Shown: positions 1,711-26,289, numbered from the stretch's first letter. The stretch is DNA of 64,000 nt from Faecousia sp. (GCA_045653245.1 JAZOLS010000029.1:2190-66189); one strand, 5' to 3'. Translations and numbers: made by a program. The notes: generated by a model not told the origin, from the letters alone.

Positions 1711-1770
1711 CAAATATAACGAATACTATACCTAAATTTTGACAACTAAATAAAATTCTTTTAAATAATA

Positions 1771-1808
1771 AAAAATAATCGGGTCGGTTGCAATGCAACT
1801 GACCCGAT
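1771..1808 (-). terminator. Intrinsic terminator after flavoprotein operon
   Basis: Stem ATCGGGTCGGTTGC/GCAACTGACCCGAT, U-tract on minus strand. Confidence 0.75.
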
Positions 1809-1813
1809 CAAAA

Positions 1814-3382
1814 TTATAAAGATTCCAGCAGCGCTTCTGCGGCCATGATGCCGTCAATTGCGGCGGACATGATACCGCCTGCATAGCCTGCACCCTCGCC
1901 GGCCGGATAAAGGCCTTTGAGATTCGATTGGTGGTCTTCCCCACGCAGGATGCGTACAGGCGAAGAACTTCTGGTTTCCGGGGCAGTAAGCACCGCTTCC
2001 GGTACTGCAAAGCCCTTAAGATTCTGCTCCATTTGGGGCAACGCTTCTTCCAGTGCTCTTGTAATTTTTGCAGGCAGAACCTGATGCAAGTCCGTCCATA
2101 CCACACCGGGTCTGTAACTGGGATCTACTCCCTTTGCACCGGTACTGGGTTTTCCTGCAAGAAAATCGCCAACTGTTTGCGCAGGTGCTTTGTAACTGCC
2201 CGTGTGTTCGTATGCTTTCTTTTCCAATTCTTCCTGCCACAGCATACCGCCCAGCACACCCTCGTAAGGGAAATCTGTCGGATTTAAACTGACCAGCAAG
2301 GCCGCATTGGCATTTTCCCCATCCCGATCTGCATTGCTCATGCCGTTGGTCACAATCTTACCCTGCTCCGATGTGGCAGCAACCACATACCCGCCGGGGC
2401 ACATACAGAAAGTATAAACGGTTTCGTTTTCCAAATGCCGCACCAGTTTATAGTCTGCCGGGGGCAACGGAAGGTCATCCCGGCCATACTGGGCCTTATC
2501 GATCACCGATTGCAGTTGCTCGATCCGCACACCCATGGCAAAGGGTTTCGCTTCCATGGGAACGCCCAATTCGTAGAGCATACGGAATGTATCCCGGGCA
2601 CTATGGCCGATGGCAAGAATCACTTGATCACAGGCTATATCACCTTGGTTGGTGTTTAGACCTGAGATTGCACCATTTTCTGTCAAAATTCCGGTCACCT
2701 GGGTACAGAACCGCACTTCACCACCCAAGGAAATGATGCGTTTGCGAAGATTTTGAACCACAGTCAAAAGTACGTCCGTTCCCACATGAGGTTTCGCATC
2801 ATAAAGAATATCCTCTCGGGCACCAGCTTTGACAAACTGCTCCAATATCCATCCGATACGGGGATTATTCACGCCGGTGTTGAGTTTTCCATCGGAAAAA
2901 GTTCCTGCACCGCCCTCACCGAATTGCACATTGCTGATTTCGTCCAACTGCCCGGTCGCAAAGAATTTCTGCACCTTTTCATGCCGGGTTTGGGCATCCT
3001 CCCCACGCTCCAGGATGATGGGCTTCAAGCCTGCCATTGCCAAAATCAGACCTGCAAACATACCGGCAGGACCAAAACCGACCACAACGGGCCGTTTCTC
3101 TGACTGATAAACAGCCTTGGGCGGTTTGTAATATGCAACCGGCGCGATGGTTGCCTTTTTACATCCGCTGGCTTTTAAAACCTTATTTTCACTGCCGTCT
3201 ACCGACACATCGATGGTGTAAATGATGCGCACATCCGGCTTTTTCCGGGCATCAATAGAACGTCGCACCAAAGAAAGACCACGAATCTTAGAAGCAGAGA
3301 TCCGAAGCAAACGGGATGCCTCATACACCAATTGATTGGCATCATGCTCCGGGGGTAACGAAATATCACGAATCCGAATCAT
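1814..3382 (-). CDS. Uncharacterised FAD-dependent oxidoreductase (COG2509-like)
   Basis: VVGFGPAG Rossmann motif, QFGEGGAGTFSDGKL, TFCMCPGG, GEGAGYAGGI; start moved to ATG 3382, overlapping upstream stop (ATGA). Confidence 0.85.
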   Translation of the reverse strand: MIRIRDISLPPEHDANQLVYEASRLLRISASKIRGLSLVRRSIDARKKPDVRIIYTIDVSVDGSENKVLKASGCKKATIAPVAYYKPPKAVYQSEKRPVVVGFGPAGMFAGLILAMAGLKPIILERGEDAQTRHEKVQKFFATGQLDEISNVQFGEGGAGTFSDGKLNTGVNNPRIGWILEQFVKAGAREDILYDAKPHVGTDVLLTVVQNLRKRIISLGGEVRFCTQVTGILTENGAISGLNTNQGDIACDQVILAIGHSARDTFRMLYELGVPMEAKPFAMGVRIEQLQSVIDKAQYGRDDLPLPPADYKLVRHLENETVYTFCMCPGGYVVAATSEQGKIVTNGMSNADRDGENANAALLVSLNPTDFPYEGVLGGMLWQEELEKKAYEHTGSYKAPAQTVGDFLAGKPSTGAKGVDPSYRPGVVWTDLHQVLPAKITRALEEALPQMEQNLKGFAVPEAVLTAPETRSSSPVRILRGEDHQSNLKGLYPAGEGAGYAGGIMSAAIDGIMAAEALLESL

Positions 3383-22029: not shown

Positions 22030-22278
22030 ATGCCTGACACTATGGAGGAGCGAGCCTGCGCATTGGCTGTGTACATGATCGAAACAGGTGCCACCGTCCG
22101 CGCCGCGGCGCAGCATTTTGGCATTTCAAAATCCACCGTCCATAAGGATTTATCCCAGCGCCTGCCCCAGTATAACAAACTTCTCTATGAGCAGGTACGG
22201 AAAGTTCTGGACATAAACAAGCAGGAGCGGCATATCCGCGGCGGTATGGCCACCCAGCGTAAGTACAAAAAACCATGA
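22030..22278 (+). CDS. spoIIID: Sporulation transcription regulator SpoIIID
   Basis: ATVRAAAQHFGISKSTVHKDLSQRL...ERHIRGGMATQRKY; start 22030. Confidence 0.95.
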   Translation: MPDTMEERACALAVYMIETGATVRAAAQHFGISKSTVHKDLSQRLPQYNKLLYEQVRKVLDINKQERHIRGGMATQRKYKKP

Positions 22279-22536: not shown

Positions 22537-23019
22537 ATGTTTAATATCACTCTGATCACCATGGGTAAACTGAAGGAAAAGTTTTACCTCAGCGCCGCCG
22601 AGGAGTATTGCAAGCGGTTAAAGGGCTATTGCAATTTTCAAATCATTGAATTGCCGGAGCATCGTTTGCCGGAAGATCCCTCCCCTGCTGAAATTTCCGC
22701 AGGACTGGAAAAGGAGGCAGAATTGATCTTCGCAAAGATACCGAAAGGCGCATGGTTCTGCATCTTTACCCCCGAGGGAAAAATTCTATCCAGCGAAGGC
22801 TTTGCCGACAAGTTGAAAGAAGTGAAATTGTCCGGCAAAAGCAGCGCCTGCTTTTTGATCGGTTCTTCCTTTGGAATATCTCCACGGGTAAAAGAAAAAG
22901 CGGATTTCAAGCTTTCCATGGGCCCCATGACCTTCCCCCACCATTTGGCACGTGTCATGGTGCTGGAGCAGCTTTACAGGGCTGAGGCAATCCAAGCCGG
23001 AAGCAAGTACCATAAGTAA
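22537..23019 (+). CDS. rlmH: 23S rRNA pseudouridine-1915 N3-methyltransferase
   Basis: GKLKEK, FLIGSSFG, LSMGPMTFPHHLARVMVLEQLYRA, KYHK; sigma-A promoter TTGCGA-17-TATAAT at 22488..22516. Confidence 0.95.
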   Translation: MFNITLITMGKLKEKFYLSAAEEYCKRLKGYCNFQIIELPEHRLPEDPSPAEISAGLEKEAELIFAKIPKGAWFCIFTPEGKILSSEGFADKLKEVKLSGKSSACFLIGSSFGISPRVKEKADFKLSMGPMTFPHHLARVMVLEQLYRAEAIQAGSKYHK

Positions 23020-23047
23020 AAGAGCGTCGCACATAGCGACGCTCTTT
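23019..23047. terminator. Bidirectional terminator
   Basis: AAAGAGCGTCGC-ACATA-GCGACGCTCTTT. Confidence 0.8.
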
Positions 23048-23051
23048 CTCA

Positions 23052-24752
23052 TTAGCGATAGAAAGTATTTCCGCCGATGAATTCACGCACCAGGGATGTG
23101 GGTGGGATCTCGTCGTCCACATCCGCTTCCTGGACAAAGTTCAGCACCTTAACAATGGAACGAACCTCGTCATAGGCAGGATCTTCCGGCTCAACAGCCG
23201 TCAAAAGCGGGAAAATGTGTTTTTTCAGAACCGCCAGTTCGTACAAAGTGGAACTGTTGAAGATCACATCCGCGTTTTCCTGGAACGGGAAGATCCAGCG
23301 GCGCTCGCCAGCACGGACGCTGTCCCACATACCGATAGTTCTCTGTACACTGGTGCCACGGCCCTCAAAGTCGCGAACGATACGCCGCAGCAGGCGCAGA
23401 TAGCTGGTGGGGATACGGTTGTGGTCATCCAGATTCAGAGGCAGCAAGGGGCTCACATACATACGGAACACCAAATGTTTATCCAGGCCCCTGGGCAACA
23501 GTACAGGATTCAGCGCATGCAGACCCTCAATGACGAAAACAGTATCCTTATCCATCTTCATCTTATGGCCGTTCCAAACACGCTTACCCAATTTGAAGTT
23601 GAAAGTGGGGATCTCCACTTCCTCGCCCTCGAGCAATTTGGCCAAATGCTCACCGAAGAGATTAGTATCGATGGTATTGATGTGCTCCAAGTCAATCTTG
23701 CCGTCCGGGCCGGGCAAAATCATATCTCGGTCCAGGTAATAGTCGTCCAGGCTCATGAGGATGGGCTTTTTGCCGTGAACCCGGAGCTGGGTGGAAAGAC
23801 GGTTTGCAGAGGTGGTCTTGCCAGAAGAGCTGGGTCCTGCCAGCATGACTGCTTTTGCACCACGGTTGCAAACCATATCCGCAATACGGGAATAATTCTT
23901 TTCGTGCAGGGCTTCGTTGACCCGGATCAGTTCCCGAATGCGGCCTGAATCCACAAGGTCATTCAAATCCGCAACCGTCTGACAGTCCATGAGGTACCCC
24001 CACTTTTCCCCCTCGGAGAACATGGTAAAGAAATGGGGACTTTCTTTGTAATCGGCCACCTGGTCGGGATCTTGGTCATCGGGATAGATGAACATGAAGC
24101 CGCCGTCTTTTTGCTGAATATCCCAAACCTGCAGATAGCCGGTAGAGGGTGCTAGTTCGCCATAGAAATAGTCACCATAGTCTTCATGTATGTACTCGTC
24201 AAAATAGGGTTCTTTGCGCCAGGAAAGCAGTCTAGCCTTATCCTCCTGCCCGGATGCCACATAGCGGGCAATGGCTTCCTCGGTGGTCAGACGCTGACGG
24301 ATCAGTGGAATGTCCATTTCAACCAACTTTGTAATTTCTGCTTTCAGTGCGCGAACGGAGAATTCCTTGCATCCGTAAACCGCAATAAACAGGCCTGAGC
24401 CAACGGTACAATTCATCTTGGCGCGGGCCTGTGGATACAGCCGGTGCAGCGCAAGGAATGTAACGAATTGTGCGGTGCGAGTATAAACCTCTCTGCCTGT
24501 ATCGTCTCCATAGCGAAGCAGGCGCACCTGTCCGTTAGAAGCCGCCATAGCTCGGCGGATGGAGGGCCGATCAGAGTCCGCATCCTTTTGGCGGACGGGG
24601 ATGTAGTTCAGATTGAAAACTTCGCCTGCAATCTTTGCAGCCAAAGGTCGGGTGGAAAGTTTGTCTGTATCCATGCCCAATTTGCGTAACATATCCAAAA
24701 GAGATTGACCCGGACGAGGCTCAACAGTACGGCCGTCAATATTCAATGTCAT
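23052..24752 (-). CDS. Uridine-kinase-like nucleoside kinase with N-terminal TGS/ThrRS-like domains
   Basis: P-loop AGPSSSGKTT, LDDYY, IEGLHALN, RLLRRIVRD, WIFPFQENAD; N-terminal half resembles the ThrRS N-terminal region. Confidence 0.85.
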   Translation of the reverse strand: MTLNIDGRTVEPRPGQSLLDMLRKLGMDTDKLSTRPLAAKIAGEVFNLNYIPVRQKDADSDRPSIRRAMAASNGQVRLLRYGDDTGREVYTRTAQFVTFLALHRLYPQARAKMNCTVGSGLFIAVYGCKEFSVRALKAEITKLVEMDIPLIRQRLTTEEAIARYVASGQEDKARLLSWRKEPYFDEYIHEDYGDYFYGELAPSTGYLQVWDIQQKDGGFMFIYPDDQDPDQVADYKESPHFFTMFSEGEKWGYLMDCQTVADLNDLVDSGRIRELIRVNEALHEKNYSRIADMVCNRGAKAVMLAGPSSSGKTTSANRLSTQLRVHGKKPILMSLDDYYLDRDMILPGPDGKIDLEHINTIDTNLFGEHLAKLLEGEEVEIPTFNFKLGKRVWNGHKMKMDKDTVFVIEGLHALNPVLLPRGLDKHLVFRMYVSPLLPLNLDDHNRIPTSYLRLLRRIVRDFEGRGTSVQRTIGMWDSVRAGERRWIFPFQENADVIFNSSTLYELAVLKKHIFPLLTAVEPEDPAYDEVRSIVKVLNFVQEADVDDEIPPTSLVREFIGGNTFYR

Positions 24753-24756
24753 AGTC

Positions 24757-24990
24757 TTATCCTCCTTTATTTTCCTTGCGGTACAGTCTATAAAGCTGCA
24801 CCATCTGAATGATCAGAAGTCCGATGTTCAGCAAAGCAGTGGGCCATGTATTAGTAAAAATGCCGTAGATAGCGCAGATGATCGCACCACTCATATTTAC
24901 GGTCCGTAACCATTTTACCGAAGTCATCATCATGGAGATGAGAACCAAAGCCATACCTACATAGCCAAAGATTTCAAGATGTACATTCAT
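24757..24990 (-). CDS. 77-aa three-helix membrane protein (YgjV-like / SemiSWEET-sized)
   Basis: EIFGYVGMALVLISMMM / LRTVNMSGAIICAIYG / WPTALLNIGLLII; RBS AAAGGAG. Confidence 0.8.
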   Translation of the reverse strand: MNVHLEIFGYVGMALVLISMMMTSVKWLRTVNMSGAIICAIYGIFTNTWPTALLNIGLLIIQMVQLYRLYRKENKGG

Positions 24991-25032
24991 ACAGCATATG
25001 CTCCTTTCGGGGTTAAAATGCGGCGGTCAAGT

Positions 25033-25077
25033 AAAAAATATGGCTGACCGCCAGTTGAAGAACCGGTAGTCAACCAT
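25033..25077 (-). terminator. Riboswitch-controlled terminator overlapping the aptamer 3' half
   Basis: AUGGUUGACUACCGGUU-CUUC-AACUGGCGGUCAGCCAU, 16 of 17 pairs, then AUUUUUU. Confidence 0.8.
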
Positions 25078-25127
25078 TTACGGTGGTTCGTAGAAACGCT
25101 TACCCCTATTGTAAGCATATACCCAAT
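25061..25127 (-). ncRNA. Purine riboswitch aptamer, guanine-type discriminator (C74)
   Basis: GUA-UAU-GCUUAC-AAUAGGG-GUAAGC-GUUUCUAC-GAACCA-CCGUAAA-UGGUUG-ACUAC matches the purine riboswitch core (J2/3 GUUUCUAC, L3 CCGUAAA, L2 GG kissing). Confidence 0.92.
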
Positions 25128-25167
25128 ATGTAGCATTTCGCCAAAAGATTGGTTCAATGTGTTGTGG

Positions 25168-25196
25168 ATTATATCATACTTGCCCAAAAAATGCAA
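25168..25196 (-). promoter_or_regulatory. sigma-A promoter of the riboswitch operon
   Basis: TTGCAT-17-TATAAT with extended TG. Confidence 0.8.
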
Positions 25197-25207: not shown

Positions 25208-25939
25208 CTAAAACTCTCCACAGGCATACATCACAGCGGAAAGGGCGCAAAGTGGCGCAGTTTCGCACCGCAGGATGCGCTTTCCAAGTGTGCAAACCTG
25301 CAAGCCCTTATCCCGGGCCATTTGCACTTCTTTCTCTTCAAGGCCGCCCTCCGGGCCGGTAAGTAAGCTGATGGTAGCAGCACTTCCCTGCTCCATAGCC
25401 ATGCGCAGCGTGGTAGCCTGTTCATTTTCATAGAACATCAGCGCCTTGTCAGCCTGGGCGGCTCTTGTAAGGGCTTCCTTGTAGCTGCCAAGCACCAACA
25501 CCTGGGGCACTCTGCCACGGCCGGACTGCTCTGCGGCGGACGCAGCAATCTTCTGCCAGCGCTCCAGTTTCTTCTGCAGGCTCTTTTCATCCGGCTTGGA
25601 AACGCAACGGGATGACGGGAACGCAACGATCTCGTATGCGCCCAGCTCCGTTGCCTTTTGGATCACATGTTCAAGTTTGTCTGCCTTGGGAAAAGCCATG
25701 TAAATGCTGACCCTAACAGGAGCCTCGGACGCGGATTCTCTGCGACTCTTTACCACCAGGCTAATCTGACCGGCGCTGACATCGCTGACGGCGCACAGGC
25801 ATTCCTGGCCCTGGCCGTCGCATACCAACACCTCTTCTCCGTTTTTCAAACGCAGCACCTTGGCGTGCTGGGCATTCTCACCGGTGAGCACCAAAAAATT
25901 GGGCTGTAATTCTTCGGGCGTTACGAAAAATCTTGTCAT
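25208..25939 (-). CDS. rsmE: 16S rRNA m3U1498 methyltransferase
   Basis: HAKVLRL, KATELG, AAEQSGR, GPEGG, LGKRILRCETA. Confidence 0.95.
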   Translation of the reverse strand: MTRFFVTPEELQPNFLVLTGENAQHAKVLRLKNGEEVLVCDGQGQECLCAVSDVSAGQISLVVKSRRESASEAPVRVSIYMAFPKADKLEHVIQKATELGAYEIVAFPSSRCVSKPDEKSLQKKLERWQKIAASAAEQSGRGRVPQVLVLGSYKEALTRAAQADKALMFYENEQATTLRMAMEQGSAATISLLTGPEGGLEEKEVQMARDKGLQVCTLGKRILRCETAPLCALSAVMYACGEF

Positions 25940-26200: not shown

Positions 26201-26289
26201 GGAGAGATGTCCGAGCGGTTTAAGGAGCTAGTCTTGAAAACTAGTGATGGGGCAACCCACCGTGGGTTCGAATCCCACTCTCTCCGCCA
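26201..26289 (+). tRNA. tRNA-Ser (anticodon UGA)
   Basis: GGAGAGA/TCTCTCC acceptor stem, anticodon arm CTAGT-CTTGAAA-ACTAG, long variable arm, GGTTCGAATCC, G73, encoded CCA. Confidence 0.97.

Follow-up and report, generated by a model that had tools for sequence, protein, structure and literature searches.

What would a minimal membrane protein and a nucleoside-kinase-like enzyme do behind a purine riboswitch that appears to be wired to turn its genes on? The question is raised by a locus in a stretch of 64,000 nucleotides from Faecousia sp. (GCA_045653245.1 JAZOLS010000029.1:2190-66189), hereafter the window, in which an initial annotation had proposed a purine-induced uptake-and-trap module. 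The layout it described, a riboswitch followed by a 77-amino-acid three-helix protein, a gap of 4 nucleotides (24753-24756), a 566-amino-acid kinase and a closing hairpin, was confirmed in every part; the interval it gave, 23052..24990, encloses both open reading frames (ORFs) and leaves the riboswitch at 25047-25144 just outside. The reading that we prefer, and hold tentatively, is that of a guanine-induced purine-nucleoside facilitator with a kinase that phosphorylates guanosine or inosine rather than uridine. The operon, from its 5' end, consists of the following parts:

25168..25196, minus strand: promoter-like site by sequence reading, with TTGCAT, a 17-nucleotide spacer and an extended -10 (TG-n-TATAAT)
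25047-25144, minus strand: purine aptamer, Rfam RF00167 (47.7 bits against a gathering threshold of 37, E 6.8e-5)
25065..25123, minus strand: guanine-type aptamer core with U22, U47, U51 and C74 (the last at 25069), a short P1, and G-G in place of the C54-G72 pair
25033..25077, minus strand: intrinsic terminator of the leader, hairpin 25040-25077 and U-tract 25033-25038 (six U's)
25021..25053, minus strand: alternative hairpin, which by constrained-fold prediction absorbs the terminator 3' arm once the aptamer forms
25001..25007, minus strand: ribosome-binding site of the small gene, 10 nucleotides upstream of the ATG at 24990
24757-24990, minus strand: small gene, 77 amino acids, three-helix membrane protein, half of a YgjV-type protein
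23052-24752, minus strand: kinase gene, a 566-amino-acid fusion of a region like threonyl-tRNA synthetase (ThrRS) N1/N2 (~1-220), a helical linker and a uridine-cytidine-kinase-fold domain (~300-566)
~23020-23046: hairpin 3' of the kinase, between the convergent kinase and rlmH stop codons (-23.8 kcal/mol, z-score -6.6)

By its sequence the aptamer is a guanine-type purine riboswitch of class guanine-I, for which guanine or hypoxanthine is the predicted ligand; in the RF00167 alignment its junctions are free of insertions and U22, U47, U51 and C74 are all kept. The xanthine-II and guanine-II classes were rejected, as the insertions in J2/3 or J3/1 described for them (PMC9295807) are absent, and so was the 8-oxoG class, in which U47 is described as lost (PMC10556655). 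The usual OFF wiring of guanine-I was not found here, and the terminator is predicted to overlap the aptamer, its 5' arm being made of the 3' strand of P3, J3/1 with C74 included, and the 3' strand of P1. Because the terminator consumes the ligand-pairing C74, the leader is predicted to be an ON switch, as had been annotated. The terminator hairpin is stable (-22.1 kcal/mol, z-score -6.0), with none of 200 shuffled sequences reaching its stability. When the leader is folded up to the U-tract, the terminator state lies at -33.5 kcal/mol and the aptamer-constrained state at -17.9 kcal/mol, and therefore control would have to be kinetic, as in pbuE, an ON architecture whose terminator is built at the expense of P1, J3/1 and P3 and which encodes a purine efflux pump (PMC7707468).

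This wiring recurs among related switches. An exact-pattern scan with one genome per species yielded 54 switches of this subtype, hosted mostly by Faecousia or Oscillospiraceae and in a few cases by Lachnospiraceae, Acutalibacteraceae and other Clostridia; since the scan pattern was derived from our own hits, the set consists of close relatives and is a biased sample. A C74-consuming hairpin with a U-rich tail is present at 50 of the 52 testable loci, the other two of the 54 being truncated. Among 17 switches in the genus that belong to the other subtype, 15 of them in front of xpt or BMP lipoprotein genes, 2 show it, as do 56 of 1040 shuffled sequences. At nine genus loci the terminator is kept with arm sequences that vary yet remain complementary. 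Position 54 is G or A at 48 of the 54 loci, which breaks C54-G72 at the base of P3 and may ease strand invasion. Two leaders stand apart from this series. At L040 (~1720-1900, minus strand) a small gene and kinase lie behind another structured leader with a terminator-like end and no convincing Rfam match, possibly an unrecognised regulatory RNA; the leader at L032:1-230 holds a partial duplicate of the small-gene start and no aptamer, the same genome carrying the ON aptamer at another contig end (L074), so that this arrangement is possibly an assembly artefact.

The kinase bears the domains first assigned to it, TGS/ThrRS-like at the N-terminus and uridine-kinase-like at the C-terminus. Profile searches match the N-terminal region to ThrRS N1/N2 (E 1e-25 to 5e-23) and the C-terminal region to uridine-cytidine kinases (E 2.5e-19 to 2e-13), and Foldseek places the kinase domain in the uridine-cytidine kinase (UCK) fold (E 1e-10, TM-score ~0.7 over the target). 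In the N-terminal region the His, His, Cys and His of ThrRS, which we take to be its editing residues, are replaced by R92, F96, F196 and L200. K312, D336, E356, R456, R460 and R465, a set that takes in Walker A, the catalytic Asp, and the acid and Arg residues that bind ribose, occur in 62 of 62 aligned family members, and this invariance makes it probable that the protein is active as a ribose 5'-kinase. The residues expected to read the base differ. Position 389, which corresponds to Tyr93 of ttCK and His117 of UCK2, is Gly in 59 of the 62 (G389 in the window protein), with neither His nor Gln in any of them, position 467 (Arg152 of ttCK) is T, A, S, C or N in 61 of 62 rows (T467 here), and W476 is invariant. 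Exhaustive mutagenesis of ttCK is described as giving uridine phosphorylation only with His or Gln at 93, and Arg152 as contacting the base, with R152L lowering cytidine activity (PMC5614712). In addition, the 566-amino-acid protein misses two NCBIfam udk equivalog cut-offs (81.7 against 180 bits and 77.7 against 220.3 bits), and the window genome encodes a separate, canonical Udk of 208 amino acids with its base-reading residues intact. Uridine is thus an unlikely substrate, given G389, the missing Arg152 equivalent and the separate Udk, and of the two substrate branches initially offered, purine nucleosides or pyrimidine salvage, it is the first that these features favour.

Shorter kinases of ~310 amino acids without the ThrRS region were followed at 20 hand-picked loci (L325-L344). 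None of these 20 loci has a riboswitch, and three have an inosine/guanosine purine nucleoside phosphorylase (PNP) and a purine-deaminase-like gene downstream. The short forms often sit after a relA-dtd-hemZ cluster, where hemZ was verified in four of four cases tested. Near a further kinase homologue, group II intron domains lie on its 3' side (L212:254-548, minus strand).

AlphaFold2 models the 77-amino-acid protein as three helices (3-19, 25-45 and 49-76; predicted local distance difference test score 91.9). It matches Imp-YgjV (PF10688) at 20.7 bits, under the cut-off of 23.5, and only over model positions 91-158, the C-terminal half; 143 of 150 homologues match PF10688 at E up to 0.05, and the Atlas agrees. 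By these matches the protein is clearly half of a YgjV-type protein, one repeat in place of two. G9, S19, R29, N32, G35 and N55 are invariant in the small-protein alignment A2. When a profile of 38 short members was searched against 177,635 PDB sequences, the top five hits were all SemiSWEETs (E 0.006, 0.0098, 0.016, 0.2 and 0.36), aligned through GY...S in transmembrane helix (TM) 1 and YG...P...N across TM2-TM3 by way of Y42-G43, P50 and N55. Twelve two-repeat YgjV-like proteins align to the small-protein family with an hhalign probability of 97.7, and with them too SemiSWEETs rank first (E 0.036-0.054), a result not fully independent because these proteins were retrieved with the same profile.

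Structure comparisons were less specific. Foldseek places SemiSWEETs at ranks 4-6 for the monomer without significance (E 2.0, TM-score 0.53-0.59, root-mean-square deviation 7-8.5), VIA structural searches returned generic helical bundles with no SWEET in the top 50, which does not exclude the family, and the homodimer prediction scored 0.08 against a mark of 0.42, evidence neither way. Among the hidden Markov models listed as matching the protein at E up to 0.1, none is of the MtN3, PQ-loop or SemiSWEET type. PnuC (PF04973) does not match it, and matches 7 of the 150 homologues weakly. The SemiSWEET relationship that had been suggested therefore stands as a distant one seen in sequence profiles, and the protein is not a member by family motifs or models. 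It probably acts like a SemiSWEET protomer, and the invariant S19, R29, N32 and N55 may line a polar pore that would suit a nucleobase, a nucleoside or an anion better than it would a sugar. True SemiSWEETs were found in 2 of 101 and 1 of 201 genomes searched.

Larger versions of the small protein also exist. The longest among the top 150 of 783 representatives has 259 amino acids, relatives of ~200 amino acids carry a C-terminal GNAT-like domain, and forms of 157-199 amino acids sit between the switch and the kinase at metagenome loci; a search for longer fused forms of 351-2000 amino acids found none, which is weak evidence. A label of "uroporphyrinogen decarboxylase" on one homologue was rejected because the protein is a 77-amino-acid membrane helix bundle; Imp-YgjV (PF10688) proteins have also been deposited under that name. 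At L146:1181-1707 (plus strand) a tandem pair of half-YgjV genes lies divergent from prs, an arrangement that suggests a heterodimer.

The pairing of the two genes does recur behind the switch, as had been anticipated, at 18 of the 54 loci: 16 carry small gene and kinase, and 2 carry rubredoxin, small gene and kinase. A further 7 switches lead the kinase alone and 3 the small gene without kinase. Eleven lead rubredoxin with neither small gene nor kinase, 9 lead first a flavin adenine dinucleotide (FAD)-dependent oxidoreductase of ~456 amino acids (5 of these then rubredoxin), 2 lead an MgtC-family gene, and 4 are other or truncated. Of 106 metagenome small-protein loci, the best 80 include 21 with the ON aptamer, followed by the kinase in 12, by no kinase in 5, and truncated in 4. 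The small gene is thus also led by the switch on its own account, with no kinase, at 3 of 54 genome and 5 of 21 metagenome switch loci, which counts in favour of the preferred reading.

Outside this setting the genes part company. The kinase is found in 152 of 250 genomes of the class (Clostridia), and neither the ON aptamer nor the small gene was seen at the 29 best kinase loci outside the genus (Rfam was run on 20). The small protein was matched in 21 of 151 genomes; once 3 weak rows and one partial duplicate were dropped, 18 solid genus hits remained, with the kinase downstream in 10, a position after upp in 4, a switch without kinase in 1, a place before lyxose isomerase in 1, and other settings in 2. 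Beyond the genus, the nine strong small-protein loci of the class carry neither switch nor kinase. In a FastTree phylogeny of 59 kinases, all the switch-led ones but one fall in a clade of 30 rows (support 85), of which 21 have switch and small gene, 6 the switch only and 3 neither. The exception, at L124, is led directly by the switch, is 34% identical and sits on a long branch outside the clade; no close relatives of it were found in 80 related genomes at E up to 1e-60, and a second origin of the switch-led kinase thus rests on that one locus. Four switch-plus-kinase genomes (completeness not given) have no small-gene match anywhere. Clade confinement and the separate occurrences point to a single lineage's operon with repeated losses and not to a pan-clostridial module. 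The idea of a conserved, obligatory PnuC/NadR-like module across Clostridia is accordingly abandoned (kinase alone 7/54, small gene alone 3/54, pairing at 0/29 kinase loci outside the genus), and we propose instead that each gene was recruited on its own into a small set of guanine-induced genes and that the two do not form an obligatory complex.

The other members of that set are less easily placed. The oxidoreductase and rubredoxin switch loci are L084, L092-L094, L102, L111, L115, L120 and L132, with rubredoxin-first loci among L083-L136. The oxidoreductase, presumably COG2509, bears a Cys cluster, and the window genome encodes one of that type (G000:C25:6472-7836), while its sole RF00167 match is that of the window. 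A RegPrecise survey places COG2509 under a purine switch in two clostridia, and its eight supplementary files list no udk, uridine kinase, COG0572 or rubredoxin (PMC3766115). At L103:989-2948 (minus strand), L096:2076-2951 (minus strand) and L114:1570-2442 (plus strand), the switch leads an ORF of 46-53 amino acids, followed by a DUF6198 membrane gene at L096, an MgtC-like membrane gene at L114, and at L103 an unannotated membrane ORF and then an NT5C-guanylate kinase fusion.

A guanosine or inosine kinase is the simplest reading of the enzyme because it is guanine-induced and has an enlarged, non-pyrimidine pocket, and a parallel exists in guanine-II, described as an ON switch upstream of salvage phosphoribosyltransferase genes (PMC9295807). 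In the mechanism that we propose, the terminator would, without ligand, invade P1 and J3/1, and transcription would halt near 25033; guanine or hypoxanthine bound co-transcriptionally would delay the invasion and let the polymerase read through, under kinetic control as in pbuE. The half-YgjV protein would dimerise into a SemiSWEET-like facilitator that lets a purine base or nucleoside equilibrate between the two sides of the membrane; phosphorylation by the kinase would then trap the nucleoside in the form of GMP or IMP, with no phosphoribosyl pyrophosphate (PRPP) spent. The broader proposal, that the ThrRS-N/Udk-fold family is a purine ribonucleoside (guanosine/inosine) kinase and half-YgjV a nucleobase/nucleoside facilitator smaller than SemiSWEET, both under a guanine-I ON switch, we regard as doubtful.

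A number of observations weigh against the preferred reading. The PQ motif and the conserved Trp have functional roles in SemiSWEETs, and the small protein lacks the PQ motif in TM1, the 12-residue segment after TM1 and the TM2 Trp (here Ser/Cys); its SemiSWEET E-values are modest. Its distant homologues have mixed neighbourhoods, and the family's position in 4 of the 18 genus hits is directly after a pyrimidine gene, upp. At the 30 best genus kinase loci, switch and small gene are present in 5 and neither in 25. Loss of the pyrimidine contacts does not prove purine specificity, as ttCK Y93G is described as still phosphorylating cytidine (PMC5614712), and the occurrence of Gln at 389 in 5 of the 20 short forms, including 2 of the 3 beside PNP, counts against a family-wide purine assignment. 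The genus purine importers (xpt, BMP) lie behind the other switch subtype, most members of which fail the ON test; an ON importer runs against the usual logic because of this and because all four guanine switches of C. difficile are reported as OFF (PMC11477304). The window genome already encodes hpt and three PNP/UDP-family phosphorylases. Finally, 20 of the 54 ON switches lead rubredoxin or the FAD oxidoreductase, targets which this reading leaves unexplained and which no single story covers yet.

The alternative that survives best is relief of purine excess, in which the small protein would mainly export surplus purine base like PbuE, the kinase would be co-induced without trapping its cargo, and the gene set as a whole (small protein, kinase, rubredoxin, COG2509-type oxidoreductase and nucleotidase-guanylate-kinase fusion) would dispose of or rebalance excess guanine nucleotides. 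The shared ON architecture of pbuE and the efflux pump that it encodes (PMC7707468) speak for it, as do the placement of genus importers under the other subtype, the separate occurrence of small gene and kinase under the switch, and the NT5C-guanylate kinase fusion downstream at one locus. We nevertheless consider it unlikely, in that export by a facilitator that has no energy source would need a favourable gradient and the pair is adjacent in 21 of the 30 clade rows. Genomes with the small gene also tend weakly to be without a BMP importer: the nucleoside-binding BMP lipoprotein of ~400 amino acids was found in 1 of 5 genomes that carry the small gene and in 4 of 5 that do not, a weak comparison among related genomes of which the first set is less complete. 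Neither an NCS2 permease nor a typical BMP lipoprotein was found in the 78%-complete assembly of the window genome. There was no sign that the small protein takes the place of NCS2 permeases (3 of 5 against 4 of 5 genomes).

Pyrimidine rebalancing, in which abundant guanine would cause uracil, uridine or cytidine to be taken up and then phosphorylated by a kinase whose pocket has been remodelled, appears distinctly unlikely given Gly389 in 59 of 62 members with loss of the Arg152 equivalent, the canonical Udk and upp already encoded in the genome, and the wide margin by which the kinase misses the udk cut-offs. On the other side, the nearest solved structures are uridine-cytidine kinases, the small-protein family directly follows upp in 4 of 18 genus hits and a ribonucleoside hydrolase in two metagenome loci (one of them annotated), cytidine activity is retained in ttCK Y93G (PMC5614712), and Gln stands at 389 in 5 of 20 short forms. 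The small-protein genes after upp (L043, L044, L047 and L048) encode three proteins of ~200 amino acids and one of 74; upp of the window genome has no small-protein neighbour.

That the kinase is instead a captured housekeeping enzyme, acting for example on the end of tRNA or another RNA through its ThrRS-like region, with the switch and small-gene unit inserted upstream, would fit its presence in 152 of 250 class genomes and the 29 best non-genus loci without switch or small gene, the genus metA, which lies immediately before the kinase or is separated from it by switch and small gene, the frequent position of short forms after the relA-dtd-hemZ cluster, and the mapping of the pair to a single clade, but is improbable in view of the switch that still leads the kinase where there is no small gene (7/54), the divergent L124 kinase that is also switch-led (though a singleton among 80 relatives), the ~310-amino-acid forms entirely without the ThrRS region, and the invariant ribose-binding residues.

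The -35 of the promoter-like site has 3 of 6 matches to the consensus, and the site is absent from the consensus-scan list. The hairpin at ~23020-23046 has a short U-tail and was not called by the consensus terminator scan; it is probably a bidirectional terminator common to the kinase and the convergent rlmH. Besides the purine aptamer, Rfam identifies just a tRNA in the window. The flanking genes are apparently unrelated to the operon:

22030-22278, plus strand: spoIIID
22537-23019, plus strand: rlmH-type SPOUT methyltransferase
25208-25939, minus strand: RsmE-type methyltransferase
26201-26286, plus strand: tRNA

The literature searched, subscription papers left out, holds no description of the operon or of guanine-ON control of the ThrRS-N/Udk-fold kinase family, and YgjV papers give no substrate in their titles or the openings of their abstracts. 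The switch serves as a substrate clue for two widespread families without an assigned function in that literature, the ThrRS-N/Udk-fold kinases and the YgjV-type proteins. If the purine-nucleoside reading holds, a large family of proteins routinely called uridine kinases would have to be re-annotated, and gut anaerobes would gain a route of purine salvage that is independent of PRPP. The SWEET superfamily would then reach to purines by way of a minimal protomer, YgjV proteins would have a first class of substrate, and pbuE would have a natural guanine-responsive ON counterpart for comparison.

Among known systems, the leader most resembles the B. subtilis pbuE adenine riboswitch, in which a more stable terminator likewise competes with P1, J3/1 and P3 and the first gene encodes a membrane protein; here C74 takes the place of U74, a 77-amino-acid half-YgjV protein that of PbuE, and a kinase follows downstream. 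With guanine-I switches (xpt-pbuX, RF00167) it shares the canonical U22/U47/U51/C74 core and differs in being predicted ON rather than OFF, and with guanine-II it shares the ON direction and lacks the junction insertions. The small protein is like the SemiSWEETs (L. biflexa 4qnc, E. coli 4x5m, and 4rng) in its three helices, its size (~80-100 amino acids in this group) and the GY...S and YG...P...N motifs, and unlike them in its invariant Arg29 and Asn32, which are not seen in SemiSWEET. The kinase shares the fold, Walker A, catalytic Asp and ribose Arg residues of uridine-cytidine kinases (ttCK 3asz, human UCK2), whereas its base-reading residues are replaced and a ThrRS-like N-terminal region without the editing His and Cys has been added. 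PnuC and NadR take up and trap their substrate by a facilitator-plus-kinase logic, and the likeness to them is confined to that logic; the 77-amino-acid protein is far smaller than PnuC, and the pair described here is separable. The RF00167 aptamer, the UCK fold and the SWEET-like helices are each of known kind, and the pairing is restricted to one lineage.

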